64,000 bases of DNA from Candidatus Undinarchaeota archaeon (GTDB lineage Archaea; Undinarchaeota; Undinarchaeia; Undinarchaeales; UBA543). Below the pieces are notes generated by a model, which saw nothing but the letters and a program-made list of their open reading frames with translations, had not been told where the DNA came from and ran no database searches. Positions 2,655-42,382 of the stretch are shown piece after piece. A program made the translations under genes and the position numbers. The DNA lies in contig CAZMMZ010000003.1 of assembly GCA_964567575.1 (NCBI GenBank), positions 4,328 to 68,327 on the forward strand. The letters run 5' to 3'. The stretch's first letter is position 1. Every line of letters starts with the position of its first letter.

Positions 2655-3083
2655 TTACTCTTGTTCTTGTGGTGCTGGAACTGGGTCTGAAGGTTGTGGT
2701 GCTTCTGGTTGCGGTTCAGGGGCTGGTTCTGGTGCAGGCTCTGGCTCAGGTTCTTCAGGGGTAGCTTCTGGTTCTTCAGGGGTAGCTTCTGGTTCTTCAG
2801 GAGCAACAGGAGTTTCTTCAGGAACTTCTGTAACTGCTGGTTGTTCTGGTTCTTCCACTGTTGATTCTTCTGGCACTGGTGTTGTGTCTAATGGTTTTAC
2901 TTCAATTGCACCAGTTGGGCATGCGCCTTGGCAAGCTCCACATTCAATACAATGATTTGGTTTGAAATCCTGTGTTTCAACTCTTGGGAATCCTTCAGAG
3001 TCCTTATCAATTGCAGTTACTGGACATACTCCAATACATGCATAATTTTTTTGACATTTTGTTTTATCTACTACTGCTGGCAT
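2655..3083 (-). CDS. Dicluster-type ferredoxin with a long Pro/Glu/Ala-rich C-terminal tail
   Basis: One canonical CIECGACQGACP motif and one degenerate CQKNYACIGVCP motif (7Fe-like layout). I start it at the internal ATG (MPAVVDK, 3083) to avoid overlap with the divergent gene. The last ~90 aa are PEEPEAT/PEPAPE repeats. Confidence 0.8.
   Translation of the reverse strand: MPAVVDKTKCQKNYACIGVCPVTAIDKDSEGFPRVETQDFKPNHCIECGACQGACPTGAIEVKPLDTTPVPEESTVEEPEQPAVTEVPEETPVAPEEPEATPEEPEATPEEPEPEPAPEPAPEPQPEAPQPSDPVPAPQEQE
2749..2802. repeat. 21-bp tandem repeat (2.5 copies) inside the ferredoxin tail
   Basis: GGTTCTTCAGGGGTAGCTTCT occurs at 2749-2769 and 2770-2790, with a partial third copy to 2802. 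It encodes the repeated PEEPEAT peptide. Confidence 0.9.
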
Positions 3084-3195
3084 TTTATTTTCCTCGTGCG
3101 TTTGGTTGAGAATAATTGTATTTAAGTTTATCCGCTTCTGCAAATTTTTTACACACCTGGAAACTTTATTAAAGAAACAATGCTTGTTTTATTCT

Positions 3196-4167
3196 ATGAA
3201 GTCTTCAGCAATTGCTCACTCAAATATAGCACTTATCAAATACTGGGGACGCTCTTCAGAATTGAATATCCCACTGAACGACAGTATCAGCATGACAAAA
3301 AATGGTATTGGGGATATTAAACTCAAAGCTCATACAACAATTGATTTTTCTGAAGATTTTTCTGAAGATGTTGCAATTCTCAATGGAGAACAATTATCTG
3401 ATAGAAATCTTGAAAGAATTCTTTTGGTTATCAATCCTTTGCGAGAAAAATCTGCAATTAATTTAAATTTTAAAATGGAAAGCAAAAATGATTTTCCCAC
3501 ACAAAGTGGACTTGCATCGTCTGCTGCTGGTTTTGCAGCGCTTGCAACTGCTGCATCTGCTGCACTTGAATTAAAATTATCAAAAGAAGAATTATCAACA
3601 TACGCGCGTCTCGGCTCTGGATCTGCAGCTCGTTCAATTCATGACGGCTTTGTCCATTGGCATACTGGTGAAGATCATGAAAGTTCTTTTGCTGAGCAAA
3701 TCTGCGAACCAAATGATTTTCAAATGAATGCTGTTATTGCAGTTATTAATGAGGAGAAAAAGAAAGTCACTTCTGATGTTGGTCATGATTCTGCTTTTAC
3801 AAGTCCGTTGAATTCTCCAAGAGTAACACGATCTCAAGAGCATGCTGAATTAATTCGCAAAGCAATTCTTGATGATGACTTTACAACTGTTGGAAAAATC
3901 GCAGAGAGCAGTGCGCTTTACATGCATGCAGTAATGATGACTTCAAACCCTGCTTTGTATTATTGGTCTTCTAAAACTGAAAAAGTCATGGACTTAGTTC
4001 GAGATTCTGATATCAATTGTTTCTTTACAATTGATGCCGGTCCGAATGTTCATGTTCTATGCAGACCTGAGAATCGCGAGGAAGTTGAGAAACTTCTTTC
4101 AGATTACAAAACAATTCCTGCTGAACCAGGAGAAGGTTCTTCAGTGGTGCAGGAACACTTATTTTAA
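3196..4167 (+). CDS. mvaD: Mevalonate (di)phosphate decarboxylase family enzyme (GHMP superfamily); substrate not assignable
   Basis: Motifs AHSNIALIKYWGR, GLASSAAGFAAL, GSGSAARS and IDAGPNVH are typical of the MVD/PMD family. The start is set at ATG 3196 (MKSSAIAH) rather than the upstream 3106. Confidence 0.85.
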   Translation: MKSSAIAHSNIALIKYWGRSSELNIPLNDSISMTKNGIGDIKLKAHTTIDFSEDFSEDVAILNGEQLSDRNLERILLVINPLREKSAINLNFKMESKNDFPTQSGLASSAAGFAALATAASAALELKLSKEELSTYARLGSGSAARSIHDGFVHWHTGEDHESSFAEQICEPNDFQMNAVIAVINEEKKKVTSDVGHDSAFTSPLNSPRVTRSQEHAELIRKAILDDDFTTVGKIAESSALYMHAVMMTSNPALYYWSSKTEKVMDLVRDSDINCFFTIDAGPNVHVLCRPENREEVEKLLSDYKTIPAEPGEGSSVVQEHLF

Positions 4168-4190
4168 GGGGAGGAAACTATCACAATTCA

Positions 4191-4850
4191 ATGAAGGATA
4201 AAGCAGTAATCTTTGACATGGATGGTGTAATTGTTTATACTCTAGATCATCATTATGCAGCTTGGAAAGATCTTCTTGCAGAACGAAATATTAATTTTTC
4301 GCGTAATGAATTCAACAATATGATTGGTCAATCTTCTCAGGCATTTATTCAATCTCTTCGACTAAAAGGACTTAAAGGTGGTGAAAAACGATTAGTAGAA
4401 GAGAAAGATAAAAGATATCTTCAAAAATTCAAGGAGAAAGCACCGCCTCTTGTTGATGGTTTTCTTCCTATCCTTGAGGACATAAAAGATATTGATCTTA
4501 AAACAGCAATCGCAACTTCCGAGCCAATGGAAATTATGAATGCAACAATAATAGAATATGGTTTGCTAAATAAATTTGATGAGTTTGTAACTTCTGATGA
4601 TGTTAAAAATTTAAAACCAGATCCTGAAATATATTCCTTAACTTCTCAGAAATTAAATGTTTCTCCTCAAAATTGTATAGTTTTTGAAGATTCACCTAGT
4701 GGTGTTAAATCTGCAAAAAAGGCAGAAATGTATTGTATTGCATTGACAACTTCTTATTCAAAAAATGAATTAAAAAAAGCTGGAGCAGATAAAATAATAA
4801 CTAATTTCACTGAAATAAATCTTGGAGACATATTAGATGCACTTAACTAA
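4191..4850 (+). CDS. HAD-superfamily hydrolase (subfamily IA, beta-phosphoglucomutase-like phosphatase)
   Basis: Motif I is AVIFDMDGVIV. The cap region and motifs III/IV (KPDPEIY, FEDSPSGVKSA) are present. Confidence 0.8.
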   Translation: MKDKAVIFDMDGVIVYTLDHHYAAWKDLLAERNINFSRNEFNNMIGQSSQAFIQSLRLKGLKGGEKRLVEEKDKRYLQKFKEKAPPLVDGFLPILEDIKDIDLKTAIATSEPMEIMNATIIEYGLLNKFDEFVTSDDVKNLKPDPEIYSLTSQKLNVSPQNCIVFEDSPSGVKSAKKAEMYCIALTTSYSKNELKKAGADKIITNFTEINLGDILDALN

Positions 4851-5985
4851 AAACGAGGAGCAAATCCTCAATGGGGAACAAGGCGAAGCTAAACAAAAAG
4901 CTCTCAAAATTCTTGTCAAGCTCGGTGATAAAGAAAAATCTGATAATCTAATACCGATACGAAGTGCACACGTCCCAAATATTTCTTATACAGAACTTTC
5001 TGAAAGCGAAGTAACTACATTAGAAAAATGGGCAGAGCATTTTCCAAAAGTTGAAGTTCCAACAACTTTGAATGCAGGTGGTGTTTCCCAACGAACTCCT
5101 GATTTTGTTGATGACTTACCAAAGCAAGGTCAAATCATAAATTCTTTCAAAGCGTTCCATACTATTCCCGTTCTTACAACTGCTCCATATACAATTGGTT
5201 ATATTCCAAAAGAAGGAAATGATATTGCGTGGGGTCATGATAGTGCAGTTGTTTATGCAAATTCAGTTCTTGGTGCGTGCACAAATAATCATCATTGGAA
5301 AACTGCACTTGCTTCAGCACTTCTTGGAGTAACTCCAAATTCCGGATTGCATCTTCAAGCCAACCGCGAACCTGAAATAAATTTGAAAGTTAAGGAAAAA
5401 CTTTTCGGTTATGAAGATTTCAGTGCACTTGGATATTATGTTTCAAAAGAATATTCAAATCAAATTGTAAATTTTAGTTTTCCTTCAAAGCCAAACAAGG
5501 AAAATCTACAGGCGCTTGCTTCTGGTTATTCCACTAATACAAAGAAATACATGTTTACAATTGGAAATAAAATTGACGCCGAAAAAATTGAAGTTGGATT
5601 TGATGAAATCGATACAGTTTTCCAGGAATTCTCTGCTGAAGATCCAGATTTCGTTGCTCTTGGTTGTCCTCATTTTTCAAATTCTGATTTCCAAAAAATT
5701 GCAAGAATTCTGAAAGGGAAGAAACTTCAGAAATCTGCGAAGTTTTGGATTTACACTGCTGAAAAAATTCGCGCTGATTTAGAACTTGATGGGCATGAGG
5801 ATTCTATAAAGAAAGCTGGATGTTATGTTGCAACTGATGCATGTCCGAGCCTTGCTCCTCTTGAAAAGTTTGGAATAAAATGTGTTATGTCAAATTCTGC
5901 AGAGCTATGCGCAAAAGTTAAAAGCATGGGTCTTAAAGCTCACTTATCAAGCTTTGACGATATTGTCAAGTGGGGGTTTAGATGA
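4837..5985 (+). CDS. Aconitase-X (DUF521) catalytic-domain protein, phosphomevalonate-dehydratase-large-subunit-like
   Basis: N-terminus MHLTKNEEQILNGEQGEAKQKALKILVKLG..IPIRSAHV, then VPTTLNAGG, SAVVYANSVLGA.TN and LGCPHFS follow the DUF521/AcnX pattern. There is a 14-nt overlap with the HAD gene and a 4-nt overlap with the next gene. Confidence 0.7.
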   Translation: MHLTKNEEQILNGEQGEAKQKALKILVKLGDKEKSDNLIPIRSAHVPNISYTELSESEVTTLEKWAEHFPKVEVPTTLNAGGVSQRTPDFVDDLPKQGQIINSFKAFHTIPVLTTAPYTIGYIPKEGNDIAWGHDSAVVYANSVLGACTNNHHWKTALASALLGVTPNSGLHLQANREPEINLKVKEKLFGYEDFSALGYYVSKEYSNQIVNFSFPSKPNKENLQALASGYSTNTKKYMFTIGNKIDAEKIEVGFDEIDTVFQEFSAEDPDFVALGCPHFSNSDFQKIARILKGKKLQKSAKFWIYTAEKIRADLELDGHEDSIKKAGCYVATDACPSLAPLEKFGIKCVMSNSAELCAKVKSMGLKAHLSSFDDIVKWGFR

Positions 5986-6926
5986 AGAATCCAACTGGTT
6001 CAGCATGTGGAAAAATAATACTTTTCGGAGAACACTCTGTTGTGTATGGTCATCCTGCGATAGCAGTCCCTGTTACAGCATTACATGCTGATGTTTTTAT
6101 TCAACCAGCTGAGACATTAGTAATTTCATCTCGAAATTTTAATACTGAATATGAAATCTTGAAAAATCCTTTAAATAAAAATGAAACTGGTTTTGGACTT
6201 CAAGAAACAGTTCTAAACACTTTGAAATTTTTCAATCTTCTAAAGAAGCAGAATATTCACATTACAATTGATTCTTCAATTCTTCCAGCATCTGGTTTGG
6301 GGAGTAGTGCTGCTGTTGCTGTTGCAATTATCCGCGCGCTTTCAAATTATTTCAAAAAGAAAATTTCAAATAAAGATTTGTATGATCTAGCTTTCAAAAC
6401 TGAAGTGATTTATCATGGGGATCCAAGTGGTATTGACCCTGCAGTAATTATTCACGAAAAACCGGTTTACTTTAAGAGTGGTAAAAAAACTCGTCTTGAA
6501 CCACTAAAGGTTGCTAACAAAATTCCTATTATAATTGCTGACACCGGAGTTCGCAGTTCAACAAAGGAAGTTGTTTCTGATGTGAAAAAAGCAAGAGCAA
6601 GCGACAAAGATAAGTATGATACAATTTTCAGTGAGATAATTCCTATTGTTCATCGGGTACGCGATGTTATAGAAAAAGGAAATGTTTCAGAGCTTGGCAG
6701 ATTAATGAATGAAAATCACGAACTTCTAAAACAAATTGATGTTTCAAGTCCTGAACTTGATTTGCTTGTTGAATCTGCGCGCGAGGCAGGAGCAACAGGA
6801 GCTAAACTCGCTGGTGCAGGAAGAGGCGGCCACATCATAGCGTTGGCTGAGGATAATGTGCAAAAAATCAGCAAAGCGCTTGTAGATGCTGGAGCATCCC
6901 ATATTTTCTTTACTGAAATTGTTTGA
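5982..6926 (+). CDS. mvk: Mevalonate kinase (GHMP kinase)
   Basis: GKIILFGEHSVVYG, PASGLGSSAAVAVA, HGDPSGIDPA and KLAGAGRGG are the classical mevalonate kinase motifs. Confidence 0.85.
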   Translation: MKNPTGSACGKIILFGEHSVVYGHPAIAVPVTALHADVFIQPAETLVISSRNFNTEYEILKNPLNKNETGFGLQETVLNTLKFFNLLKKQNIHITIDSSILPASGLGSSAAVAVAIIRALSNYFKKKISNKDLYDLAFKTEVIYHGDPSGIDPAVIIHEKPVYFKSGKKTRLEPLKVANKIPIIIADTGVRSSTKEVVSDVKKARASDKDKYDTIFSEIIPIVHRVRDVIEKGNVSELGRLMNENHELLKQIDVSSPELDLLVESAREAGATGAKLAGAGRGGHIIALAEDNVQKISKALVDAGASHIFFTEIV

Positions 6927-6980
6927 GAAAACTTAAATAGGACTTTATGGAACTGAGAGCTATTCGAAGTGATATATACA

Positions 6981-7907
6981 ATGATAACAGCTTCTGCCCC
7001 AGGTAAAGTAATACTCTTTGGTGAGCACGCTATGGTTTTTGGCGAGCTTGGCATTGCTACTGCAATTGAGAAACGAGCATACGTTACAATTTGTGAGCTC
7101 GATGAACCAAAAATCGTAGTGCAGTCTAAGAATGTAGAGACTACAATTGAACTTCCTTCTTCTGAACGACCAAAAGAACCAATTACAAAAGCTGCACGCC
7201 TTGCTCTTGCAAAATGTGGGCACAAAGATCAAGGTCTTGGTATTGAGATTAATTCTGAAATTCCACAAAGCGCAGGTCTTGGTGCATCAGCAGCGATTTG
7301 CACTGCAACTGCAGCTGCTGTTCTCAAGATGTTTGAAAGCGAACTTGATATTATGAAAGTTGCAGAGATTGCATACGAAGCTGAGAAAACAATTCATACT
7401 AATCCTACTGGTGTTGAAACTGCAGTCACAACTGTTGGTGGAACAATTGCTTTCCATCGCGGGCAAGTTGAAGCATTGAAAACCGAATCATTAAGCATGG
7501 TTGTTGCAAACACTGGATTTACAAGCAATGCAGAATCAATGATTAAATTAGTTAAACAACATATTGAGGATCCTCGAATGGGTTGCACACTTTTCTCAAT
7601 TGGTGGATTAGTTAAACAAGCAAAAGATGCTATTTTGAGAAATCAATATTCTGTTATTGGAAACTTAATGTATAAAAATCACGATTATCTAAAAAATCTT
7701 GGAGTAAGTTCACCGGAACTTGAGAATCTTGTAAAGCGCTCAAAAGATGCAGGTTCCCCTGGTGCAAAGCTTACTGGTTTTGGTGGTGGTGGTTCTATGA
7801 TTGCATTAGCCAAAGATCCTGATCCTCTTGTTGATGCTCTTAAATCATCTGGAGCAAAAGTTTTCAAAACCATGACAGGACAGAATGGTGTAAGAATTAA
7901 AGAGTAA
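6981..7907 (+). CDS. Second GHMP kinase, mevalonate-kinase-like (could be a phosphomevalonate kinase or MVK paralogue)
   Basis: GKVILFGEHAMVFG, PQSAGLGASAAICTA and KLTGFGGGG are present. The HGxPSG motif is replaced by HTNPTGVE. Start taken at ATG 6981; the track starts at GTG 6969. Confidence 0.75.
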   Translation: MITASAPGKVILFGEHAMVFGELGIATAIEKRAYVTICELDEPKIVVQSKNVETTIELPSSERPKEPITKAARLALAKCGHKDQGLGIEINSEIPQSAGLGASAAICTATAAAVLKMFESELDIMKVAEIAYEAEKTIHTNPTGVETAVTTVGGTIAFHRGQVEALKTESLSMVVANTGFTSNAESMIKLVKQHIEDPRMGCTLFSIGGLVKQAKDAILRNQYSVIGNLMYKNHDYLKNLGVSSPELENLVKRSKDAGSPGAKLTGFGGGGSMIALAKDPDPLVDALKSSGAKVFKTMTGQNGVRIKE

Positions 7908-7947
7908 ACTCAAACTATAAATATTCTAAAACAAAGTTATTCTTGGG

Positions 7948-8712
7948 ATGGTAAAGGATTTAATTTTCATTAAGCTTGGAGGCTCGGCTATTACTAACAA
8001 GTCTGTTGAAAATTCTCTTAATGAAAAAGTTTTGAATCAAGTTTCAAAAGAAATTTCTGAATGCAAAGATTTTAATTTTTTAATTGGTCATGGTGGTGGT
8101 TCATTCGCGCATCCTATTGCAGCGAAATACAATGTTCAAAATGGGTTGCAAGGTAGCAGTCTTGAAGGATATTCTAAAACTCGAAAAGCTGTTGATGATT
8201 TAGGAGAAATAGTAACTGGTTCATTAACATCTGCTGGAGTTCCAGCAGTTTTTCTTCCAACTTCTACTCTTGCTGTAATGAAAAACGGAGAAGTAAAAGA
8301 ATTTTTCACTTCTCCAATTGAAAAATATCTTGAAACTGGGAAAGTTCCTGTACTTCCTGGAGATGTTTGCCTTGATTATGAAAAAGTTTTTTCAATTGCA
8401 TCAACTGAAATGATTTTTAATTTCCTGGCAAGTAAATTCAATCCAGTAAAACTTATTATTGGAACAAATGTCGATGGTGTGCTTGATAACGATATTGTGA
8501 TTCCTGAGATAAATCATCAAAACTTCAATAAAGTATTGGAAAAACTCGGTGGTTCTGCTGGAGCAGATGTGACTGGTGGGATGAAACACAAAGTTGAAGA
8601 ACTAAGTAAAACACATATTGACGTTCATATCATTAATATTCAGGAAGAAGGGAGATTGAAAAAAGCCATTCTTGGAGAAGATGTTATTGGAACGAGGTTG
8701 ATTTTTAAATGA
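7948..8712 (+). CDS. ipk: Isopentenyl phosphate kinase (amino-acid-kinase fold)
   Basis: FIKLGGSAITNK and LIGHGGGSFAHP motifs, ~250 aa, and a position next to IDI2 and the MVA kinases. Confidence 0.85.
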   Translation: MVKDLIFIKLGGSAITNKSVENSLNEKVLNQVSKEISECKDFNFLIGHGGGSFAHPIAAKYNVQNGLQGSSLEGYSKTRKAVDDLGEIVTGSLTSAGVPAVFLPTSTLAVMKNGEVKEFFTSPIEKYLETGKVPVLPGDVCLDYEKVFSIASTEMIFNFLASKFNPVKLIIGTNVDGVLDNDIVIPEINHQNFNKVLEKLGGSAGADVTGGMKHKVEELSKTHIDVHIINIQEEGRLKKAILGEDVIGTRLIFK

Positions 8713-9749
8713 CAGGGGAAACAGAATCTCGAAAGTTAGATCATATAATGATCTGTACTGAGAAGGATGTCCAATCTCAAAAATCAACACTTTTTGAGTG
8801 TGTTGATTTTTTGGATGGTCCTAAATTTTTAAGTGAACCTGATTTAGATTGTAGCACAACTTTTTTCAAAAAGAAATTGAATTATCCAATTATAATTGCT
8901 GGAATGACAGGGGGTGTTGCCGATGCTGAGCAAATTAATAAAAATTTAGCTCAAGCTGCTGAAGAGCTTGGTCTTGGTTTTGGTCTTGGTTCACAACGAG
9001 CAATGCTTGAAAATCCAACTTTGAAAAAGACATACGAAGTGCGAGATATTGCTCCTAATGTTCTATTACTTGGAAATATTGGAGCTGCGCAACTTTCTGA
9101 ATATTCACAAGAACAAATTGAAAATCTTGCATTAACTGTTGGCGCAAATGTTTTGGCTGTTCATCTAAATTCAATTCAGGAAAAAATTCAACCTGAAGGA
9201 AATCTTCCTGATATTGATTATTCTGAAAAAGTAAAACAATTATGTTCTTCTGTAAAACTTCCAGTTATCCTTAAAGAAACTGGTATGGGCATTTCTTCAA
9301 AAGATGCTCACAGTTTCAGAGAATCTGGAATTGCAGGAATTGATGTTGGTGGTGCAGGTGGAACTTCTTTCGCACGAGTTGAACTTGAGCGTGGTGGAAA
9401 TGGGGAATTCCATAATCTGGAAAATTCAGGAATTCCAACTGCAGCTAGTATCCTTGAAGTCAGAAAAGTATTTCCTAATATTCCAATAATTGCTACTGGT
9501 GGGATTCGGACTGGGTTTGATGTTGCAAAATCAATAGCCCTTGGCGCAGATGTTGCTGGTATAGCTCTTCCTTTATTGAAACCAGCGCAGGAAAGTACTG
9601 AAGCTGTTGTTGGGAAGCTTGAAAAAATAATTGAGGATTTGAAAAAAGCAATGATTTCTTCAAATTCTCCAACTGTAAGTGATTTAAAGGCAGATAAGAT
9701 TAACATAAATGGAGAATTGCTTGAATGGGTAGAAAACTTGAAAAATTAA
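8709..9749 (+). CDS. fni: Type 2 (FMN-dependent) isopentenyl-diphosphate delta-isomerase
   Basis: IIIAGMTGG, GLGSQRAML, ATGGIRTG and GADVAGIA motifs of IDI-2. Confidence 0.9.
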   Translation: MTGETESRKLDHIMICTEKDVQSQKSTLFECVDFLDGPKFLSEPDLDCSTTFFKKKLNYPIIIAGMTGGVADAEQINKNLAQAAEELGLGFGLGSQRAMLENPTLKKTYEVRDIAPNVLLLGNIGAAQLSEYSQEQIENLALTVGANVLAVHLNSIQEKIQPEGNLPDIDYSEKVKQLCSSVKLPVILKETGMGISSKDAHSFRESGIAGIDVGGAGGTSFARVELERGGNGEFHNLENSGIPTAASILEVRKVFPNIPIIATGGIRTGFDVAKSIALGADVAGIALPLLKPAQESTEAVVGKLEKIIEDLKKAMISSNSPTVSDLKADKININGELLEWVENLKN

Positions 9750-10570
9750 AGGCGTTTAGTGAATTAATTCGTATTAAGGAAACATTTTTTGTTTTTGTTT
9801 CTGTTCTTGCAACTATTCTATTATGTCAAGGGAATGTGTTCAATTGGAAAATCACTCTTCCAGCTTTGTTGGCAATCATTTTTATTGCAGCTGGTGGAAA
9901 TATGATAAATGATTCTTTTGATTTTTTTATTGATCTTGTTAATCGTCCTGACAGACCATTACCTTCTGGTCGGTTTTCAAGGAAGAATGCAAAGAGATTG
10001 TCTTTTGTTTTATTTTTTATTGGAATATTTTTTTCATTATTTCTTCCATTGCTTTCAATAGTTATTGCATGTTTTACAGTAGTCCTTTTAATATTCTATT
10101 CTTATTTTTTCAAAAGAAGTGGTTTTTTAGGGAATTTTTTTGTAAGTTATATGTTCGCATCTATTTTTGTTGCTGTAGCTGCTACAACTCCTAATTTAAT
10201 GACTGGTATTTTTATTGGGATCTTGGCATTCTTTACTTCATCTGCTCATGAAATTCTAAAAGATATGGAAGATGTTCGTGGTGATAAAATCGGTGGTGTA
10301 AAAACACTTCCAATAAATCATGGAATCAAAAAAACCAATTTTATTGTTTTTTCATTCCTTCTTATAGCAATTCTTTTCACCCCAATCCCGTATTTTCTTG
10401 GGTTAGTTTCTTTTTATTATCTCTTTGTTATTTTCATTGCTGATTTGGTTTTCGTAAAAGTTATATTATCAGTACTCCGTAGTTCTTATACAAATCCAAC
10501 CAAAAATGTTAATCTCATTTTATTTGGTGTTGGTATTGTGTTCTTGGCATTTTTTGCCGGGTTGCTATAA
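9725..10570 (+). CDS. UbiA-family prenyltransferase, probably digeranylgeranylglyceryl phosphate synthase
   Basis: NMINDSFDFFIDLVNRPDRPLPSGR (NDxxDxxxD) and a second Asp-rich motif KDMEDVRGD. About 8 TM helices, at the end of the isoprenoid operon. Confidence 0.8.
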   Translation: MGRKLEKLKAFSELIRIKETFFVFVSVLATILLCQGNVFNWKITLPALLAIIFIAAGGNMINDSFDFFIDLVNRPDRPLPSGRFSRKNAKRLSFVLFFIGIFFSLFLPLLSIVIACFTVVLLIFYSYFFKRSGFLGNFFVSYMFASIFVAVAATTPNLMTGIFIGILAFFTSSAHEILKDMEDVRGDKIGGVKTLPINHGIKKTNFIVFSFLLIAILFTPIPYFLGLVSFYYLFVIFIADLVFVKVILSVLRSSYTNPTKNVNLILFGVGIVFLAFFAGLL

Positions 10571-10842
10571 TGGCCATTTCAAAAGCAGCTACACTTTCAG
10601 TATTACTCGCAGTTGTGCTATTATACCTCACACCACTCCACCCTGCAGCTGTTTTTGTTATAGCAGGTATCGGTGTTACATTTCTTTACCGTGCAATAAA
10701 AGGATGTTTTAATTTCGTTAACCCAATGGCAATTACTGGAGTTGGAGTTGTTGTTGTTCTTCATTATTTCTACCCTAACCTAATTGTTGCTCTTGTTGCT
10801 GGTCTTGCAATTTCTGTTATTACTGGTCTAGTACTTCCATAA
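10570..10842 (+). CDS. Small membrane protein (3 TM helices)
   Basis: The ATG overlaps the stop of the UbiA gene (TAATG). The protein is entirely hydrophobic. Confidence 0.5.
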   Translation: MAISKAATLSVLLAVVLLYLTPLHPAAVFVIAGIGVTFLYRAIKGCFNFVNPMAITGVGVVVVLHYFYPNLIVALVAGLAISVITGLVLP

Positions 10843-10880: not shown

Positions 10881-11237
10881 GTGATTTCAATGAAGGGGTT
10901 CAAAACATTTCTTATAGGGCTTGCTGGCTTTGTTTCTATTGTACTAACTGCATTTTTCTTCAACATAAATATGGGAGTTTTATTATTCACTATTGTTATT
11001 TTCTCTTTTATTCATCCAACAGTTTCTTTTATTCATTCAAATAAATCCACTGATTCGTATGTAGATGATACGGTTTCTAATATCGAAGCTACTCCTGAAA
11101 TTATAGAACACCTTGAAGAAAAAGTTCATGATGTTATTGACTTCACAAAAGAAAAAGTTTCAAAAACATGGAAGCAATACACCACTGAAGCAGAATCAAT
11201 AGCATGCGAGCTAACTGATTTTATGCATTCAAAATAA
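10881..11237 (+). CDS. Small membrane protein with an acidic C-terminal domain
   Basis: Two N-terminal TM helices. Starts are possible at GTG 10881 or ATG 10890. Confidence 0.45.
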   Translation: MISMKGFKTFLIGLAGFVSIVLTAFFFNINMGVLLFTIVIFSFIHPTVSFIHSNKSTDSYVDDTVSNIEATPEIIEHLEEKVHDVIDFTKEKVSKTWKQYTTEAESIACELTDFMHSK

Positions 11238-20939: not shown

Positions 20940-21554
20940 TTAGTATCTTTTTGGTTTGTGTTTCTGATAGCAGTCTCTGCAGTATACTGGTTTGTCGCCG
21001 GTTGGTTTGAAAGGCACCTGTGTTGACTGTCCGCAATCGGAGCAGGTTACAGTTGTCATTTCTCTTGGAGCACTGTCGTATCCACCTCGGCCTCCGCCTC
21101 GGTTTCCACCACCGAATCCGCCACCACGGCCGCCACCGCCACCGCCGAATCCACCTGACCTACGTGGAGGTCTGTGTTTCTGGTAGCAATCTTTGCAGTA
21201 TAGGGGTTTAGATTCATCAGGTTTGAAAGGAACTTCACAATCACTTCCGCAGTCTGCGCATTTAGCTTTGTAAATTTCGCGTCCACGGTCGTCGGTTTTT
21301 CCAGTTTTTTCTACTGTTGAAGTTGATTCTTCTGCCTGTGCTTCTGGAGCTGCTTCTTCTGCTGGCTCTTCTTCTGCTGACTCTTCAGCTGGTGCATCTT
21401 CTGTTGGTGCATCTTCTACTGATTCTTCTGGTGCTTTTTCTGAAGCATCTTCTGTGTTTTCTTCGGAACTTGTATCTTCTTTTGTTTCTACTTCTTCCTG
21501 TTCTGTGTTTGTTTCTTCCTGAGGTGCTGCCTCAGGTTCATCATCTGCGTACAT
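20940..21554 (-). CDS. Tandem CxxC-x17-CxxC zinc-ribbon protein with an RGG/Gly-Arg linker and an acidic N-terminal region
   Basis: CADCGSDCEVPFKPDESKPLYCKDC and CSDCGQSTQVPFKPTGDKPVYCRDC both have exactly CxxC-17-CxxC spacing. They are separated by RRSGGFGGGGGGRGGGFGGGNRGGGRGGY. The N-terminal 90 aa are E/A/T/D-rich. Confidence 0.75.
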   Translation of the reverse strand: MYADDEPEAAPQEETNTEQEEVETKEDTSSEENTEDASEKAPEESVEDAPTEDAPAEESAEEEPAEEAAPEAQAEESTSTVEKTGKTDDRGREIYKAKCADCGSDCEVPFKPDESKPLYCKDCYQKHRPPRRSGGFGGGGGGRGGGFGGGNRGGGRGGYDSAPREMTTVTCSDCGQSTQVPFKPTGDKPVYCRDCYQKHKPKRY

Positions 21555-24645: not shown

Positions 24646-24706
24646 AATTTTACTAAATTAAAATTGAGTATATATATTTTGTTTTTAGGGGAAAATTAAA
24701 ATTTGG

Positions 24707-24790
24707 TGCGGGGGACGAGGTTCGAACTCGCGAATCCACTAAGGAACTAGGCCCTCAACCTAGCACGTTTGACCACTCCGCCACCCCCGC
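24707..24790 (-). tRNA. tRNA-Leu (anticodon GAG), type II with a long variable arm; CCA is encoded (24704-24706)
   Basis: The reverse complement reads GCGGGGG-TG-GCGGAGTGGTCAAACGTG-CTAGG-TTGAGGG-CCTAG-TTCCTTAGTGGATTC-GCGAG-TTCGAAC-CTCGT-CCCCCGC-A. It has a 7-bp acceptor stem, a TTCGAA T-loop, anticodon loop TTGAGGG and no intron. Confidence 0.93.
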
Positions 24791-30437: not shown

Positions 30438-30812
30438 TTATGCGTTTTTCTTAATTCTAAACAATAACCAATTCTTCGGCCCCGTTTTCTCGAATTTGAT
30501 AAGACAATATTTTCCTTTGAGCTTTTTTCCTTTTAATTCAAAAACCATTTTCCCAGGGGCTTTGCTTTCCATTTCATAAGTTCCGGAATCCCAAATTTTT
30601 ACAGTGCCTTTTCCATAACCTTCTTCAATTGTTCCTTCAAAATTAATATAAGAAACTGCGTGGTCTTCCACTTGCACTGCCAAACGCTTGAGGCCTACTT
30701 GTTTTGGTGGTTGTTTCGGAACTGCCCAGCTTTTCAAAACCCCATTCATCTCCAACCTAAAGTCCCAGTGCAAATTTGTTGCATTGTGTTCTTGTATTAC
30801 AAATCTATTCAT
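30438..30812 (-). CDS. Stand-alone LigD-type 3'-phosphoesterase domain protein
   Basis: FVIQEHNATNLHWDFRLEMNGVLKSWAVPKQPP...KRLAVQVEDHAVSYINFEGTIEEGYGKGTVKIWDSGTYE is the LigD PE-domain signature. Confidence 0.85.
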   Translation of the reverse strand: MNRFVIQEHNATNLHWDFRLEMNGVLKSWAVPKQPPKQVGLKRLAVQVEDHAVSYINFEGTIEEGYGKGTVKIWDSGTYEMESKAPGKMVFELKGKKLKGKYCLIKFEKTGPKNWLLFRIKKNA

Positions 30813-34906: not shown

Positions 34907-35116
34907 ATGACAACTAGAAAAGCACACAAAATCGTGATACAACTCATAATCATACTAGCTTTTGTATTTGGATTAATAGTTGCACTTATTGCACGACAAA
35001 CCGGTAGCTACGAAGTCGGAATAATTTTTGTCGGAGCTGTTCAGATAATAATTCTTCTAGCAATTCTTTATGTACTTGAACATGTTATTGAATTTATGGA
35101 GGTTCATGTTAAATGA
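34907..35116 (+). CDS. Small membrane protein (2 TM helices)
   Basis: 69 aa, hydrophobic, with a 4-nt overlap with the following pilin gene. Confidence 0.45.
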   Translation: MTTRKAHKIVIQLIIILAFVFGLIVALIARQTGSYEVGIIFVGAVQIIILLAILYVLEHVIEFMEVHVK

Positions 35117-35619
35117 AGTCGCATCGCAAAAAAATGCAGAATAGAAAAGGCATAACCCCAATCATCTCAGTTATTCTACTCCTTATGATGACCATTGCTA
35201 TTGCTGGTCTTGCTTATTCCTGGCTTCAGAAAATGCAAGGAAGCATAACAACTTCAACAGAAAACAGGACTGCAGAATTGCTCGGTGGTTTGAAAATTGA
35301 GCTCAAGGTTGATGGTTATTACATGAATTGTACAACTGGTTCTAACTTGACAACCTTCTATGTCAGAAACGCAGGAAGCGAAGCTGCGTCAAATGCGAGA
35401 ATATTTGCTGACGATCAGTTCTTTGTCAATGGTACCGGAGGTACTAACTCGACATACGGAACAATTTCAGCAGGTCAAATGGTAACCTTTGCAATAAATG
35501 CAACCGATGGTTGCAACTTCTTTAATGAAACTCCTAGAACTATCAAAGTTGTCAGTGACCGCTCAACTGTTGAAAAGGCATTCACCTTCACCTGTTCTGA
35601 AGGCAATTGTATAGGTTAA
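35113..35619 (+). CDS. Type IV pilin-like protein (class III signal peptide, KG-type)
   Basis: MKSHRKKMQNRKG / ITPIISVILLLMMTIAIAGLAY: a basic leader, Gly at -1 and a hydrophobic helix, followed by a beta-rich domain with N-x-S/T sequons. Confidence 0.75.
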   Translation: MKSHRKKMQNRKGITPIISVILLLMMTIAIAGLAYSWLQKMQGSITTSTENRTAELLGGLKIELKVDGYYMNCTTGSNLTTFYVRNAGSEAASNARIFADDQFFVNGTGGTNSTYGTISAGQMVTFAINATDGCNFFNETPRTIKVVSDRSTVEKAFTFTCSEGNCIG

Positions 35620-35657
35620 TCGAATTCTAAAACCTTATAACTATCTCAAGATTATCC

Positions 35658-36317
35658 ATGATTATGTATCCTTCTTCGAGAAAAGCGCAGTCTGAAGTTT
35701 TGTCAAAAGTAGTAGTTGTCCTTATACTGTTGGCTCTTTCTTCATTCGCATATACATGGGGTTCAAATCTTATTGAAGCTCAAAAAATGCGATCTGAAGT
35801 TGAGGAAATCCAATCAAAATTTTTAGAATTGAAAACAAAAATCACTGAAGTTGCAAATGCAGGAAATGGCTCTGCAAGATTTGTTGATTTGAAACTCGAG
35901 TATGGTATTCTTTCAATTGAACCTGGCGAGCCTTGCAGTGGAACTGATCCAGATAATAATATGCTTCGCTATGTTCTTTCAACTAAAGATAATTTTGTTG
36001 ATTCTTTAACCTGGGCTCTTTCAGATTCTGCTAATAAAAATCTTAATTGCATAGCTCCTTACGAAAACAGTAGTTCCGGAATTATAATTTCAAAATCCAC
36101 AGTCTCCGAAGGTTTAAGCATGAATGAATATGCGTTGTGGTTCCGCAAATTGAATCAGTCTGGAAATACAAATCAATTTTTAATTAATCTCACAACAGGG
36201 TCAGCAGATTCAGATATGCGTCTCACAGCTGGCTCACATCAAATTCGAGTTGAATCTCAAGGATCTGTCCAAGTCGGCACATCCTCTTACACAAAAGTGT
36301 TGATAAGTGATGTATGA
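35658..36317 (+). CDS. Type IV pilin-like protein (class III signal peptide, KA/Q-type)
   Basis: MIMYPSSRKA / QSEVLSKVVVVLILLALSSFAY: Gln at +1 and Glu at +3, DUF361-like. Confidence 0.7.
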   Translation: MIMYPSSRKAQSEVLSKVVVVLILLALSSFAYTWGSNLIEAQKMRSEVEEIQSKFLELKTKITEVANAGNGSARFVDLKLEYGILSIEPGEPCSGTDPDNNMLRYVLSTKDNFVDSLTWALSDSANKNLNCIAPYENSSSGIIISKSTVSEGLSMNEYALWFRKLNQSGNTNQFLINLTTGSADSDMRLTAGSHQIRVESQGSVQVGTSSYTKVLISDV

Positions 36318-37000
36318 ATTTCAAAAATAAAAAAGCACAAGCAGAATTGATTTCATTTGTCCTAGTTGCAATCATAGTTATTATTGTCGTTCTTGCTTCA
36401 TATGCGTGGGGTTCTCAAATTCTTGATGATCGAAAAGAATCTTATGCAGCTACAAAAATGCGAGATAAAATGTTCGAGATTCGCGAAGCTGTTATGAGTG
36501 TTGCGCAAGAAGGTGCGAATTCAACTCGCGTTGTTTCTGTTATTATTGAAGATGGGAAATTATATCTTGACACGAGTTTCATTCCAGTTTCGTGCGGTCA
36601 GGCGCGGGCAGATAATGGAATTATTTATGAAATTGCAACAAAGGAGCAAATTGTTAATTCAGAATCATGGGCCAATGTTGATCCATATGAAAATGAAACC
36701 GGTGATCTGTGTACTGTTGGCGGTCCATCTCTAAGTTATCCTGGAGTTTTATTTGCACGGCATCGAGGAACTGGTGAAAATGGAAAATATTTGAATCAAT
36801 ATCTACTTTCATTTAGAAATCTCAAGGACATTAGCACCGGCGAGAGTCACATAATCCGCATTGGTTCTTCAGAAATCGGGCAAAACACAACTGGAATTGG
36901 TGAAGGAAAACACAATATTCTTATTCGTAATAACGCGATTACTTTTGATTCTGCAAATTCTCGGTGGACACATGAGATTTCACTGATTTTCGACCCATAA
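36314..37000 (+). CDS. Type IV pilin-like protein (KA/Q-type), paralogue of the preceding gene
   Basis: MNFKNKKA / QAELISFVLVAIIVIIVVLASYAWGSQILD. It shares YxWGSxxI(E/D) and later blocks with 35658-36317. Confidence 0.7.
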   Translation: MNFKNKKAQAELISFVLVAIIVIIVVLASYAWGSQILDDRKESYAATKMRDKMFEIREAVMSVAQEGANSTRVVSVIIEDGKLYLDTSFIPVSCGQARADNGIIYEIATKEQIVNSESWANVDPYENETGDLCTVGGPSLSYPGVLFARHRGTGENGKYLNQYLLSFRNLKDISTGESHIIRIGSSEIGQNTTGIGEGKHNILIRNNAITFDSANSRWTHEISLIFDP

Positions 37001-37046
37001 AGCGAATACACTAAACCTTTTATACTGAAAACGATTATCTCGATTA

Positions 37047-37484
37047 ATGAGAAACTGTAAGGGTGTCAGCACTATTATGGAGCAGGTCTTCATCCTGATG
37101 TTTGGTGTCCTGTTATTGATAACTGTAGTGGTGACATTCTCAGACTTAAAGGACGATACTGTCGAGTACTCGGCAATTCCTCAGTATGAGGCAGTTGCTC
37201 AGCATATGCACGCTGTTGTTATTTCAGCGCAGGAACAAATGCAATTGGCTGAATCAGGATACATCGGCTTCACAATACCGCGTGAAATCGCTGGGAAAAA
37301 CTACATAATGCGTTTCAATAATACGCACATACGGGTTGAGGATTTCCAGCAGGAAATAAACCAGACTGTTCTGCTTGCGCAGAGTAACATAACAGTATCT
37401 GGAAATGTCAGTTCTTCTGACAGCGGAAAAGCACGCGCATATTTCAATACAACTGAAAGGAGTGTAACATTCACAACGATATGA
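37047..37484 (+). CDS. Type IV pilin-like protein (KG-type)
   Basis: MRNCKG / VSTIMEQVFILMFGVLLLITVVV. Confidence 0.6.
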   Translation: MRNCKGVSTIMEQVFILMFGVLLLITVVVTFSDLKDDTVEYSAIPQYEAVAQHMHAVVISAQEQMQLAESGYIGFTIPREIAGKNYIMRFNNTHIRVEDFQQEINQTVLLAQSNITVSGNVSSSDSGKARAYFNTTERSVTFTTI

Positions 37485-39568
37485 ACAGAAACTTCAAGCG
37501 TTTTCTAAAGCATGCGGCAAGCGCCGTGAAAGAGCACCATGATAATGAGATTTTGAAAAAAGCTCACGTTGCTCCAGTTTCACATTCTAAACCAAAACCA
37601 GAAGAAAAACCAAAAGCAGTCGCACCTAAAAAACCAATTAATATTCACGAGGATTTGAAAAAAGAAGGAGTTCCTGCAGAACTCAGTCACAAGATGCACA
37701 AAGTTGTTGAAGATCATCCTGACAGCGATGCAAAAGAAGTTCTTGGTGGTGCAATACAACAAGCAATTGAACACAAGAAGAAAGGGAACATTATGCCAGA
37801 AGGTCTTACAAAGATTGTTGAAGAGGCAGTTGCTGAACAAGAGAAAGGTGTTTCAAAAGAAGAGCTCAGTGATCTTATTTCTGAAATTATGAAATCTGAA
37901 TTGGCAAAAGTTGAGTCAATGAAAACTCATTACAAAGAATCTCATCCTGAAGCGCCAATTGAAGATTCACGCCTTGCAGGTGGAATTCCGGATGTTGCAA
38001 TGCCGGTTCCTTCAACTATTAAGCAAGATATTATTCAAGCAGAATCAAAAGGTCTTGCTGTTGACATAGATCTTACAAAAACCAACATCACGTACCCGCT
38101 TATTTACAGTGGGGGGAAAGTTCATGTTTATGCAAATATCAGATACGATCCAACAATGCATCATTTAACTTTCCGAGTTATTGAACCGCAATTAAGTGCA
38201 GAAGAGCAAAAGCAATTGGCGAAAATTGAGAACACACTTATTGAAGAACTTGAAGTTGATTTCTCAGCTCTCAAAAAACAAACTGCTGAAAAATATCTTT
38301 TTGAAAAAATTAACAGTGTTATTGAATATTACGGAATGAAAATGACTTCGCGCACTAAGGAAATTATGGATTATTATATCAAACGAGATTTCATTGGACT
38401 CGGTCCAATTGAACCGATGTTCCAGGATCTTAATATTGAGGATATTTCCTGTGACGGAACTGGAATTCCAATTTATGTTTATCACCGCGATCCTCGATTC
38501 GGTTCTCTTCGTTCAACAATTTCTTTCAAGGAGGAGGATTCTTTAGATTCATTTGTAATGAAGCTCGCACAGCGGTGCGGCCGTTCGATTTCTGTTGCAG
38601 ATCCTTTGCTTGATGGTGCGCTTCCGGATGGATCTCGTGTTCAGGCCACATTTGGTACTGGCATTTCTATGAAAGGTTCAAACTTCACAATCCGAAAATT
38701 CACTAAAGATCCTCTTACTTTTGTTGATCTTGTAAAGTACGGGACAGTCAGTGCAGAGCTTCTTGCATATTTGTGGCTTGCAATGGAACACAACAAATCA
38801 GTTCTTATTGCCGGACCAACTGCTTCTGGAAAAACAACAATGCTTAATGCGCTCTCGCTTTTCATTCGACCTGAATTAAAAATTGTTTCAATTGAGGATA
38901 CGCCCGAATTGAGACTGCCACATGAGAACTGGATTTCTCAGGTTTCAAGAACTGGTTTCGGCCCTGAGGGAGCTTCTGGAAAGAAGCTTGGGGAGATTTC
39001 GCTTTTCGATTTGCTTAAGGCATCGTTGCGTCAAAGACCAGATGAGATAATTGTCGGAGAGGTTCGTGGTAAAGAGGCGTATGTTCTCTTCCAGCAAATC
39101 GCTACCGGTCACCCTGGTATGAGCACGATTCACGCAGAATCTATGGAAGCTGTTATCAACAGACTTACAACTCCTCCAATTTCTTTGCCAGCAAGTTTGA
39201 TTCAGCACCTTGATATCCTTCTTGTTATGACTCGACAAAGAATGGAAGGAAAATACAAAAGACGAATTAAAGAAGCCGTTGAGGTTATTGGTTACGATAC
39301 AAATAAGGATAGACCGTTCTTGAATATTCCTTATCATTGGATTCCTTCTGAAGATAAATTTGAATATAATGGAAAGAGTGGAATTCTCAAGGAGATAATG
39401 GAAACAATCGGAGCTTCTCCAGAGGGAATTTTCGGAGAAATTGACCGCCGAGTTAAAGTAATTGAGTGGATGGTTCGGTCAGGAATTCGCGATTACAAAA
39501 ACGTGGGCAAAGTGGTGAGTGAATATTACCAGAGCCCGCAAACTGTTCTGGAGAGAATAGATATCTAA
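37481..39568 (+). CDS. Type II/IV secretion-family assembly ATPase (FlaI/EpdL/PilB-like) with a ~200-aa K/E-rich N-terminal extension
   Basis: Walker A IAGPTASGKTTMLNAL, Walker B and Asp box ...PDEIIVGEVRG, His box TGHPGMSTIHA. Confidence 0.9.
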   Translation: MNRNFKRFLKHAASAVKEHHDNEILKKAHVAPVSHSKPKPEEKPKAVAPKKPINIHEDLKKEGVPAELSHKMHKVVEDHPDSDAKEVLGGAIQQAIEHKKKGNIMPEGLTKIVEEAVAEQEKGVSKEELSDLISEIMKSELAKVESMKTHYKESHPEAPIEDSRLAGGIPDVAMPVPSTIKQDIIQAESKGLAVDIDLTKTNITYPLIYSGGKVHVYANIRYDPTMHHLTFRVIEPQLSAEEQKQLAKIENTLIEELEVDFSALKKQTAEKYLFEKINSVIEYYGMKMTSRTKEIMDYYIKRDFIGLGPIEPMFQDLNIEDISCDGTGIPIYVYHRDPRFGSLRSTISFKEEDSLDSFVMKLAQRCGRSISVADPLLDGALPDGSRVQATFGTGISMKGSNFTIRKFTKDPLTFVDLVKYGTVSAELLAYLWLAMEHNKSVLIAGPTASGKTTMLNALSLFIRPELKIVSIEDTPELRLPHENWISQVSRTGFGPEGASGKKLGEISLFDLLKASLRQRPDEIIVGEVRGKEAYVLFQQIATGHPGMSTIHAESMEAVINRLTTPPISLPASLIQHLDILLVMTRQRMEGKYKRRIKEAVEVIGYDTNKDRPFLNIPYHWIPSEDKFEYNGKSGILKEIMETIGASPEGIFGEIDRRVKVIEWMVRSGIRDYKNVGKVVSEYYQSPQTVLERIDI

Positions 39569-39569
39569 G

Positions 39570-40439: not shown

Positions 40440-40440
40440 A

Positions 40441-41900: not shown

Positions 41901-42382
41901 GAGCGCTTCGTAATAACAAAGGTTGGCTTCGAATTATTGAAATCGTTCTTGCAGCAACTTTGGTTTTCTCTTTTATGATGTTCATCTCTCGATTTGAGGG
42001 GGGTTCTCAAATCTCTCGGCCAGACACTGATGATTATTTGCTTCGGCAAATTGGCGAGGATGCGCTTCGCGCGTATGATATTACAGATACAGTTGGGGAT
42101 GCGAAAAGTGATTTAGCAACTGATGTGATTGAAGGAGATTGGACATCAATTGGTTCATATTTTGATGGGTCTCTTGAACAGAATATCGGATACGCTGTGT
42201 ACTTTTACAATGACACAAGCGGATATTCTGATGGTGAAGTTTACTTGGAAACTGGCACAACAAACATTCCTGTGAATCGCGATATTGCAACTGTGTATTA
42301 CATGATTGCTGGCGATTCAGGTTCTCATTGCAGTGATATTAATGCGTGCGCTGTAAAGCTCGACCTTTGGTATATGAAATGA
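41891..42382 (+). CDS. Type IV pilin-like protein (KG-type)
   Basis: MGMRALRNNKG / WLRIIEIVLAATLVFSFMMFI. Confidence 0.65.
   Translation: MGMRALRNNKGWLRIIEIVLAATLVFSFMMFISRFEGGSQISRPDTDDYLLRQIGEDALRAYDITDTVGDAKSDLATDVIEGDWTSIGSYFDGSLEQNIGYAVYFYNDTSGYSDGEVYLETGTTNIPVNRDIATVYYMIAGDSGSHCSDINACAVKLDLWYMK

Follow-up and report, generated by a model that had tools for sequence, protein, structure and literature searches.

An operon of eight isoprenoid genes was analyzed in a 64,000-nucleotide stretch of DNA from Candidatus Undinarchaeota archaeon (assembly GCA_964567575.1, contig CAZMMZ010000003.1, positions 4,328 to 68,327), referred to below as the window. Judged by its sequence, the operon appears to have been caught after an incomplete pathway replacement, a reading to which we assign a probability of about 0.6: isoprenoid precursors would be made by the haloarchaea-type route, and two proteins of the displaced archaeal route, an AcnX large subunit (here called remodelled AcnX) and a kinase of the mevalonate kinase (MVK) family (kinase B), would be repurposed survivors. 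They are encoded together with an MVD-family decarboxylase, a HAD phosphatase, a further MVK-family kinase (kinase A), isopentenyl phosphate kinase (IPK), type 2 isopentenyl diphosphate (IPP) isomerase (IDI2) and a UbiA prenyltransferase. An earlier note on this DNA had concluded that the path from mevalonate to IPP cannot be read off from such a mixture. Once remodelled AcnX and kinase B are discounted, an MVK, a decarboxylase of the phosphomevalonate decarboxylase (PMD) type and IPK are left, and a path can be proposed.

Remodelled AcnX (4837-5985, plus strand) matched Pfam profile PF04412 with 302 bits, and by sequence it descends from the mevalonate (type IIb) clade of phosphomevalonate dehydratases (PMDh). 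In PMDh of Thermococcus (TkPMDh) the cluster ligands are Cys110, Cys283 and Cys342, and mevalonate 5-phosphate is contacted by N53, N79, E129, S130, S131, K361 and Y365 of the large subunit, to which the small subunit adds Ser62 and Thr63 (PMC8184944). Each Cys-to-Ala mutant of the Aeropyrum enzyme, including C122A, retained less than 4% activity (PMC10040528). All five Undinarchaeales orthologues carry a threonine (Thr115) in place of the ligand Cys110, with C277 and C336 kept. At the seven positions of the TkPMDh contacts the window protein has E, N, H, D, S, E and K, with five of the seven changed; furthermore, the 100% conserved pair R151/E152 is replaced in all five orthologues. Among 116 canonical archaeal homologues 91 alignment columns are conserved to at least 90%; all five orthologues depart from the consensus at 26 of them, in most cases with a new residue that is itself invariant, and new His, Cys and Lys residues stand in active-site loops. 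An exhaustive search of 1.84 billion cluster representatives placed the remodelled clade in a single 50% cluster, and the canonical residues were kept in all 148 other full-length representatives (≥340 aa) among the top 150. A protein lacking one cluster ligand and five TkPMDh substrate contacts cannot be counted as an enzyme of the archaeal route, and the value of AcnX as a marker of that route, as proposed in the earlier note, is lost.

A structural model of remodelled AcnX (pLDDT 82) was superimposed by Foldseek on TkAcnX (7cnr_A) with a TM score of 0.90 and a root-mean-square deviation of 2.4 Å; hence, the AcnX fold is intact. Model confidence was lowest at the loop without the former cysteine. 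A relocated third ligand was considered at the Ala358 position, which is Cys in all remodelled proteins; it was rejected, since the model helix faces this residue away from the E356/K360 side and a Cys also occurs there in five canonical representatives. A metagenome scan for intermediate states of remodelled AcnX returned only two more loci of the remodelled type; N-terminal patterns were used, and mostly canonical PMDh was matched.

The search for partner genes covered 64 kb of this genome and up to 21 kb of each relative. The AcnX small subunit, UbiD and UbiX were absent from the 64 kb, as tblastn with the proteins of a relative gave nothing under E = 0.5 (best value for the small subunit, about 1), and UbiD and UbiX matched neither in the window nor in the related loci of roughly 20 kb. 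The lack of these genes in cis, claimed before, thus extends to the whole window. In 56 of 61 canonical loci the gene next to that of the large subunit, on its downstream side, encodes the small subunit; none of the four remodelled lineages with readable downstream sequence has this arrangement.

Kinase B (6981-7907, plus strand) is an MVK-like GHMP kinase, as described before (TIGR00549, 231 bits; cut-off 163). MVK trees were calculated by neighbour-joining with Kimura distances for 33 sequences and 200 bootstraps. The kinase B clade was recovered in 200/200 replicates, nested within the Undinarchaeota MVKs in 199/200 and sister to the MVK of a related locus, L008, in 179/200. Its motifs are altered: GEHAVV reads GEHAMV, GLGSSAA reads GLGASAA, PSGID reads PTGVE, RNT(K) reads SN(A/P)E and TGAGGGG reads TGFGGGG. 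This signature was present in 6/6 orthologues, i.e., in all recovered Undinarchaeales loci with kinase A and only there, and single-MVK relatives retain PSGID, GLGSSA, NTK and TGAGGGG. In the mevalonate complex of the Leishmania MVK (LmMK), the corresponding residues are Val27, Ser152, Asp155, Thr198 and Thr283, where the six orthologues have M, T, E, A/P and F. The catalytic base of LmMK is Asp155, and Thr283, equivalent to human Ala334, forms the pocket for the C3-methyl group; mutation of the Ser lowered substrate affinity 100-fold, and the Asp-to-Ala and Asp-to-Asn mutants showed no significant activity (PMC1851959). With five substitutions in the mevalonate site, the pocket of kinase B has apparently been rebuilt. 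The ATP-binding motif, Lys9, the Glu-His pair and an acidic residue at the base position are retained.

The earlier note had taken the second kinase as a marker of the classical route. Models for phosphomevalonate kinase (PMK) gave 62 bits for kinase A and 36 bits for kinase B with TIGR01220 (cut-off 166), and 62 and 40 bits with NF040957 (cut-off 500). By sequence, neither kinase is a PMK; both belong to MVK clades, and the proposed marker falls away. Two relatives of kinase B, P0252 and P0253 (51-52% identity), read PSGIV/PSGVV without the catalytic Asp and possibly represent another non-canonical MVK lineage near Undinarchaeota.

The operon proteins were compared between the window and two other Undinarchaeales lineages, L005 and L014, and constraint was judged by nonsynonymous divergence (dN, Nei-Gojobori) and by identity relative to neighbouring genes. 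Amino acid identity to L005 and L014 was 78 and 82% for remodelled AcnX and 80 and 77% for kinase B, values close to those of ribosomal protein S11 (80 and 79%). Lower identities were found for IDI2 (70 and 69%), the decarboxylase (67% for both), IPK (56 and 55%), kinase A (54 and 59%) and UbiA (47 and 51%), the last being fast-evolving within Undinarchaeales. Values of dN were 0.13-0.15 for remodelled AcnX, 0.13-0.165 for kinase B, 0.13-0.14 for S11 and 0.31-0.38 for kinase A, and no lineage carried a frameshift or stop in remodelled AcnX or kinase B. These two are the most constrained proteins of the operon and are under strong purifying selection. Since their dN is about that of S11, we read them as repurposed rather than decaying, and they are not pseudogenes.

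Kinase A (5982-6926, plus strand; TIGR00549, 266 bits, cut-off 163) carries the full set of mevalonate kinase motifs, as stated before: GKIILFGEH, GLGSSAA, PSGID, STK and AGAGRGG are intact. Outside Undinarchaeales its nearest relatives are Anaerolineales MVKs in bacterial gene contexts (44-50% identity); it grouped with an Anaerolineales-like group in 145/200 bootstraps and with bacterial MVKs in 194/200. A Chloroflexi-like MVK was noted in one Undinarchaeales metagenome-assembled genome by Dombrowski et al. 2020 (PMC7414124 supplement). From its motifs, kinase A is probably the working MVK of the operon.

The MVD-family decarboxylase (3196-4167, plus strand) scored 185 bits with PF22700 and 248 bits with TIGR01240 (cut-off 171). 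Its best match in the Protein Data Bank was the Anaerolinea PMD 6n0x with 237 bits, as compared to 195 bits for the Enterococcus mevalonate diphosphate decarboxylase. PMD and diphosphomevalonate decarboxylase (DMD) are set apart by a ‘conserved lysine of DMD’ and a ‘conserved histidine of PMD’ (PMC11052028), and these positions are the two changed in the deposited Anaerolinea variant 6n0z. The operon enzyme reads YWGR ... GHD, with His at the position of AthPMD His194 and Arg in place of the DMD Lys, and not the YWGK ... GM of DMDs; it retains the ATP motif as well as the catalytic Asp and Arg. The same pattern, YWG(R/H) ... GH(D/E), characterizes the whole clade, whose Bathyarchaeia, Lokiarchaeia-type and Thermoplasmatota enzymes have been classified as PMD (PMC11052028). 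Among GTDB species genomes the nearest proteins were those of Bilamarchaeaceae (65%), Bathyarchaeia (about 60%), Promethearchaeota (58-60%) and Thermoplasmatota (57%). A Chloroflexi origin was rejected for the decarboxylase, as these archaeal relatives (57-65%) are nearer; a bacterial affinity is seen for kinase A only. With the haloarchaeal PMD model NF040704 the decarboxylase stayed below the cut-off (186 bits; cut-off 475). The Thermoplasma-type enzymes, mevalonate 3-kinase and ATP-independent bisphosphomevalonate decarboxylase, were not matched either (NF040848, 53 bits, cut-off 440; NF040847, 45 bits, cut-off 560), and M3P5K was not searched for. From these motifs the enzyme is probably a PMD that converts mevalonate 5-phosphate to isopentenyl phosphate.

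Taken together, flux would likely proceed by the haloarchaea-type route through kinase A, the PMD-type decarboxylase, IPK and IDI2. For Undinarchaeota the set HmgB, HmgA, Mvk, MvaD and IpK was listed by Dombrowski et al. 2020 (PMC7414124 supplement), and in those parts of the supplementary tables that were searched AcnX, DUF126 and UbiD gave no matches. The haloarchaea-type set had thus already been inferred in 2020, and the novelty lies in the two remodelled extra genes. The earlier note had allowed that the operon might collapse to a classical pathway with IPK salvage and an unrelated passenger, if kinase B were a true PMK, the decarboxylase a canonical MVD and the AcnX-like protein a member of a non-mevalonate clade. 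Instead, kinase B is not a PMK, the decarboxylase reads YWGR/GH rather than YWGK/GM, and remodelled AcnX comes from the mevalonate clade. In a second order, Naiadarchaeales, the decarboxylase (L009 8802-9827; L010 470-1504) is 35-40% identical and reads YWGQ ... GMQR; it is so divergent that the two orders apparently acquired different MVD-family genes. The Naiadarchaeales enzyme has a DMD-type Met and no Lys, with one kinase and IPK in cis.

The window encodes transcription factor B (TFB), a thermosome, archaeal ribosomal proteins and RNA polymerase subunit D, as found by profile searches, and the nearest named relatives of remodelled AcnX and kinase B belong to Candidatus Undinarchaeales (76-80% identity). 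The host is therefore a DPANN archaeon of the Undinarchaeota, tiny and symbiotic, and the reduced-genome archaeon considered before as a possibility is borne out by this affiliation. Contigs L001-L004 were identical to the window save one mismatch and one gap in L002 and hence offered no variation usable for population-level dN/dS. The gene order was common to at least five Undinarchaeales lineages, namely the window, L005-7 (including GCA_964636545.1 and GCA_030751255.1), L014/15, the Tara contig L035 and L036, where the locus is truncated to MVD-HAD-AcnX. Since the same order recurs in other lineages, the cluster is not due to chance. Its invariant core is MVD - (variable gene) - AcnX - kinase A - kinase B - IPK - IDI2 - UbiA - (EgsA) - orf90 - orf118, the variable slot being occupied by HAD in four lineages.

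A different state was found at L008, with the order UbiX-UbiD-(916 aa)-AcnXL-AcnXS-MVK-IPK-IDI2-UbiA-EgsA-PcrB, i.e., the complete canonical archaeal route plus lipid genes. L008 has flanking genes in common with the window, and its TFB is 89% identical to that of the window. Naiadarchaeales contigs L009-L012 carry MVD-MVK-IPK-IDI2-UbiA-EgsA-PcrB. One locus is thus seen in three states: the archaeal route at L008, MVD-MVK-IPK in Naiadarchaeales and the hybrid in the window and its close relatives, where kinase A sits in the slot that the AcnX small subunit occupies at L008. This comparison shows that the locus ancestrally carried the canonical archaeal route, as L008 does today.

The following history is proposed. 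Undinarchaeales would have lost UbiX, UbiD and the AcnX small subunit, and would have gained a His-type MVD-family decarboxylase from an archaeal clade as well as a bacterial-type mevalonate kinase, kinase A. Mevalonate would then be converted to mevalonate 5-phosphate by kinase A, to isopentenyl phosphate by the decarboxylase acting as PMD, to IPP by IPK and to dimethylallyl diphosphate by IDI2. The displaced native AcnX large subunit may have been kept while it lost the site-A cysteine ligand and its mevalonate 5-phosphate contacts, and the displaced native MVK may have been kept as kinase B with five changed pocket residues, including the catalytic Asp to Glu. Both would subsequently have become the slowest-evolving proteins of the operon. 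They belong to no known mevalonate route, and we read them, from their sequences, as neofunctionalised: they may act on a new substrate, or they may serve in regulation or binding. When the operon was described before as possibly redundant, transitional or a new combination, the second term came close to the truth.

Several points weigh against this history. The Asp-to-Glu exchange in kinase B is conservative, and the protein might still phosphorylate mevalonate. The clade of the decarboxylase is without a characterised member, its assignment as PMD was made by motifs, and with Arg at the DMD Lys site the enzyme might have DMD or dual activity. The trees are distance-based, the sister relation of kinase A to Anaerolineales is only moderately supported (72%), and the fast evolution of kinase A sits oddly with an essential role. 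Synonymous divergence (dS) was saturated in divergent pairs, and dN/dS values are therefore bounds only. Furthermore, L008 was placed in Undinarchaeota from synteny, TFB identity and the MVK tree alone, and a small subunit, UbiD/UbiX or a PMK could sit outside the 64 kb searched here and the ≤21 kb searched per relative.

Other explanations were weighed against the same data. A classical route could have been built locally: kinase A would be the MVK, the native MVK would have evolved into a PMK (kinase B), the decarboxylase would act on mevalonate 5-diphosphate, and IPK would serve salvage only. Two MVK-family kinases and an MVD-family gene do stand within one operon, the substrate pocket of kinase B is altered, a basic Arg occupies the DMD Lys position of the decarboxylase, and an origin of PMK by MVK duplication was proposed by Aoki et al. 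(PMC9254496). Nevertheless, we regard this route as improbable: kinase B reaches only 36-40 bits on PMK models, below kinase A, and the exchanges in its pocket (Ala/Thr to Phe, Val to Met and Asp to Glu) add bulk, which is ill-suited to a larger phosphorylated substrate. The decarboxylase has the PMD-typical His and not the DMD Met, this His being among the two positions altered in 6n0z; IPK is kept in every lineage; and remodelled AcnX is left unexplained. Far less credible still is a redundant archaeal route, in which remodelled AcnX would still act as PMDh large subunit and would draw its small subunit and UbiD/UbiX from genes at other sites of the genome. Family and fold are those of AcnX, the protein stems from the PMDh clade and takes the operon position of PMDh, it retains two of the three Cys ligands, conservation is strong, and Promethearchaeota operons do hold both routes. 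Against this stand the exchange of Cys110 for Thr and of E129, S130, K361, Y365 and R151/E152 in 5/5 orthologues, the change of the phosphate contact N53 to Glu, and the near loss of activity in the equivalent Cys mutant of the Aeropyrum enzyme. Moreover, the adjacent small-subunit gene of 56/61 canonical loci is found at none of the remodelled loci, no small subunit, UbiD or UbiX lies within the 64 kb, and MvaD, not AcnX/UbiD, is listed for Undinarchaeota genomes by Dombrowski et al. (PMC7414124).

Remodelled AcnX and kinase B might also be pseudoenzymes, i.e., non-catalytic binding, scaffolding or regulatory proteins such as metabolite sensors controlling kinase A or the decarboxylase, which we consider unlikely. 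Catalytic and ligand residues were lost despite very strong purifying selection, remodelled AcnX appears translationally coupled to HAD (14-nt overlap) and kinase A (4-nt overlap), and it is without the subunit supplying the catalytic Ser. But in kinase B the ATP-binding motif, Lys9 and Glu-His are all retained and the base position is still acidic, and the replacements in remodelled AcnX are invariant, with new His, Cys and Lys in active-site loops, as in a rebuilt rather than an abandoned site. Somewhat better, although still tentative, is the proposal from sequence that both are active enzymes with new substrates, catalyzing an undescribed step or side branch of isoprenoid metabolism. If so, remodelled AcnX would hold a rebuilt metal or Fe-S site working without the swivel subunit, and kinase B would be a GHMP kinase whose substrate is not mevalonate; the two might, for instance, salvage or convert an isoprenoid precursor taken from the host, and the operon would encode a fifth mevalonate-pathway variant or a new salvage route. 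Incomplete replacement with haloarchaea-type flux and two repurposed survivors remains the reading that we prefer.

All eight ORFs of the operon lie on the plus strand between 3196 and 10570 at the coordinates of the ORF list, and the same gene boundaries were obtained by independent gene calls on the identical metagenome contigs. Profile searches with Pfam and NCBIfam bore out every family assignment, so the eight same-strand genes of the earlier note stand with their coordinates, order and families. The junctions measure, in order, +23, -14, -4, +54, +40, -4 and -25 nt. Overlaps or gaps under 45 nt, as claimed previously, therefore hold for six junctions and fail for the one of +54 nt, which shrinks to +42 only with GTG 6969 as kinase B start. 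IPK (7948-8712, plus strand; NF040647, 198 bits, cut-off 120), which converts isopentenyl phosphate to IPP, is syntenic across all related loci and kept in every lineage. It is followed by IDI2 (8709-9749, plus strand; TIGR02151, 347 bits, cut-off 281) and by the DGGGP-synthase-like UbiA (9725-10570, plus strand; PF01040, 150 bits), which scored just under the cut-off of the DGGGP-synthase-like models PRK12884 (214 bits) and PRK12882 (208 bits).

Upstream of the operon, an AT-rich TATA-like element, ctttattaaag (3164-3174, plus strand), was read about 22-32 nt before the ATG at 3196. It is a candidate operon promoter, by which the leader would be short or absent. A ferredoxin gene (2655-3143, minus strand; Pfam Fer4_7/Fer4_10) with a 2x[4Fe-4S] domain and a long Pro/Glu-rich C-terminal tail is divergent from the operon. 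It was found upstream in all related loci (e.g., L005 7845-8234 and L008 2351-2533), even at L008 with its canonical archaeal route. We infer only from this position that the ferredoxin may be linked to the operon, for example as reductant of IDI2.

The HAD-IA phosphatase (4191-4850, plus strand) is beta-phosphoglucomutase-like (HAD_2, PF13419, 113 bits), and its catalytic motif set DMDG / TSE / K / ED was read as complete. Its gene is present in L005-7, L014 and L036 and absent at L035, where an unrelated ORF of 156 aa (L035 352-822) is found instead; hence, HAD is not essential to the module. It is an optional accessory and not universal in the clade. Between the window and L005 (9349-10014) the HAD gene showed a dS of 0.42 and 79% amino acid identity, with dS >1 in all neighbouring genes, which suggests a recent exchange of this gene between the two lineages.

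The cluster extends past UbiA into two small conserved membrane ORFs. The small hydrophobic orf90 (10570-10842, plus strand; from the ORF list, no Pfam match) overlaps the UbiA stop with its start, is 63-71% identical among lineages and is conserved towards the cluster end at every Undinarchaeales locus. The small protein orf118 (10881-11237, plus strand) has N-terminal hydrophobic segments and a conserved position with a poorly conserved sequence (41-45%). The idea that either is a diverged AcnX small subunit was rejected, as both are hydrophobic and membrane-like. The earlier account overlooked these ORFs as well as the absence of a glycerol-1-phosphate (G1P) dehydrogenase gene after UbiA. 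The latter, encoding a G1P-dehydrogenase-like iron-containing alcohol dehydrogenase, is missing at the window (10570 junction) and L035 and present at L005-7 (L005 15581-16621), L014/15 (L014 14509-15552), L008 and the Naiadarchaeales loci. PcrB (GGGP synthase) was found at no Undinarchaeales locus and is present at L008 and the Naiadarchaeales loci. Both absences would fit an ether-lipid synthesis that was lost step by step. Some lineages carry ORFs of their own within the operon, for which no family match was recorded or tested: at L008 (4365-7115, 916 aa, UbiD/AcnXL junction), at L014 (6668-8020, 450 aa, MVD/HAD junction) and at L035 (the 156-aa ORF in the HAD slot).

Additional features were recorded elsewhere in the window. 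A cis-prenyltransferase of the UppS family (49040-49729, plus strand, 234 bits) is located 39 kb from the operon, convergent with a geranylgeranyl-reductase-like flavoprotein (49726-50796, minus strand). A type IV pilus or archaellum-like locus (35113-43083, plus strand) comprises a T2SSE ATPase (37481-39568, 122 bits), two polytopic membrane proteins and, by eye, several small proteins with putative class-III-like signal peptides. The protein at 20940-21554 (minus strand) is acidic in its N-terminal half and has a stretch rich in Gly and Arg as well as a pair of treble-clef zinc fingers (PF23477), and that at 30438-30812 (minus strand) is a stand-alone LigD 3'-phosphoesterase domain (PF13298, 125 bits). 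Rfam and tRNA scans of the window returned only a tRNA-Leu (24704-24790), unrelated to the operon.

The interconversion of the four known mevalonate routes has been argued mostly from trees; here, replacement is visible gene by gene. Three related genomes show, at one locus, the archaeal dehydratase/decarboxylase pair giving way to a PMD-type enzyme, the native kinase to a bacterial one, and the displaced genes being recycled. No description of an orphan ligand-deficient AcnX large subunit or of a remodelled second MVK in Undinarchaeota was found in the literature searched. The locus supplies clonable proteins to test the proposed order of events, and it offers two candidates for new chemistry, a partnerless AcnX large subunit without the third Cys and an MVK descendant with a rebuilt pocket. 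Automatic annotation names both kinases ‘mevalonate kinase’ and remodelled AcnX ‘aconitase X / phosphomevalonate dehydratase’ and would thus mis-score pathway presence in DPANN archaea.

The haloarchaea-type pathway consists of MVK, PMD and IPK and occurs in Haloferax, in Chloroflexota and, by inference, in Bathyarchaeia, Lokiarchaeia and Thermoplasmatota. The operon likewise holds MVK and IPK, together with IDI2, and its MVD-family decarboxylase carries the PMD-type His. The operon differs in that its MVK is apparently a bacterial xenologue, its decarboxylase, which comes from an archaeal clade without a characterised member, shows Arg in place of the DMD Lys, and two remodelled relics of the archaeal route stand mid-operon. 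The archaeal pathway of Aeropyrum, Thermococcus and Methanosarcina comprises both AcnX subunits (PMDh), a UbiD-type anhydromevalonate phosphate decarboxylase, UbiX and IPK. Remodelled AcnX resembles it in fold (TM 0.90 to TkAcnX) and descent, and in L008 this locus still encodes the complete set. In the window, however, small subunit, UbiD and UbiX are missing from 64 kb, and a Cys ligand and mevalonate 5-phosphate contacts are replaced; thus, remodelled AcnX is not a functional member of the archaeal pathway.

Asgard operons mixing AcnX/UbiD with an MVD-family gene have been published (PMC11052028). The Promethearchaeota loci L018, L021, L023 and L034 read UbiD-AcnXL-AcnXS-MVD-MVK-IPK-IDI2 with UbiX nearby on the opposite strand, and a decarboxylase motif YWGH ... 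GHE; both complete routes are encoded side by side. They share with the window the combination of AcnX and an MVD-family decarboxylase, the decarboxylases being 58-60% identical. Their archaeal-route genes are complete and canonical, and the routes are therefore redundant there, whereas the window holds only a remodelled large subunit and a second, remodelled MVK. According to Aoki et al. 2022, the archaeal route was followed by the PMD route and then by the classical route, whose PMK originated as a duplicated MVK (PMC9254496). The series from L008 to the window shows PMD displacing PMDh and the anhydromevalonate phosphate decarboxylase, and an MVK paralogue diverging at its substrate site. 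In contrast to that scheme, the extra MVK was acquired by transfer instead of being duplicated, it is the native copy that diverges, and there is no sign that this copy became a PMK. Read in this way, the locus agrees with the first step of the scheme and offers a real instance of it.

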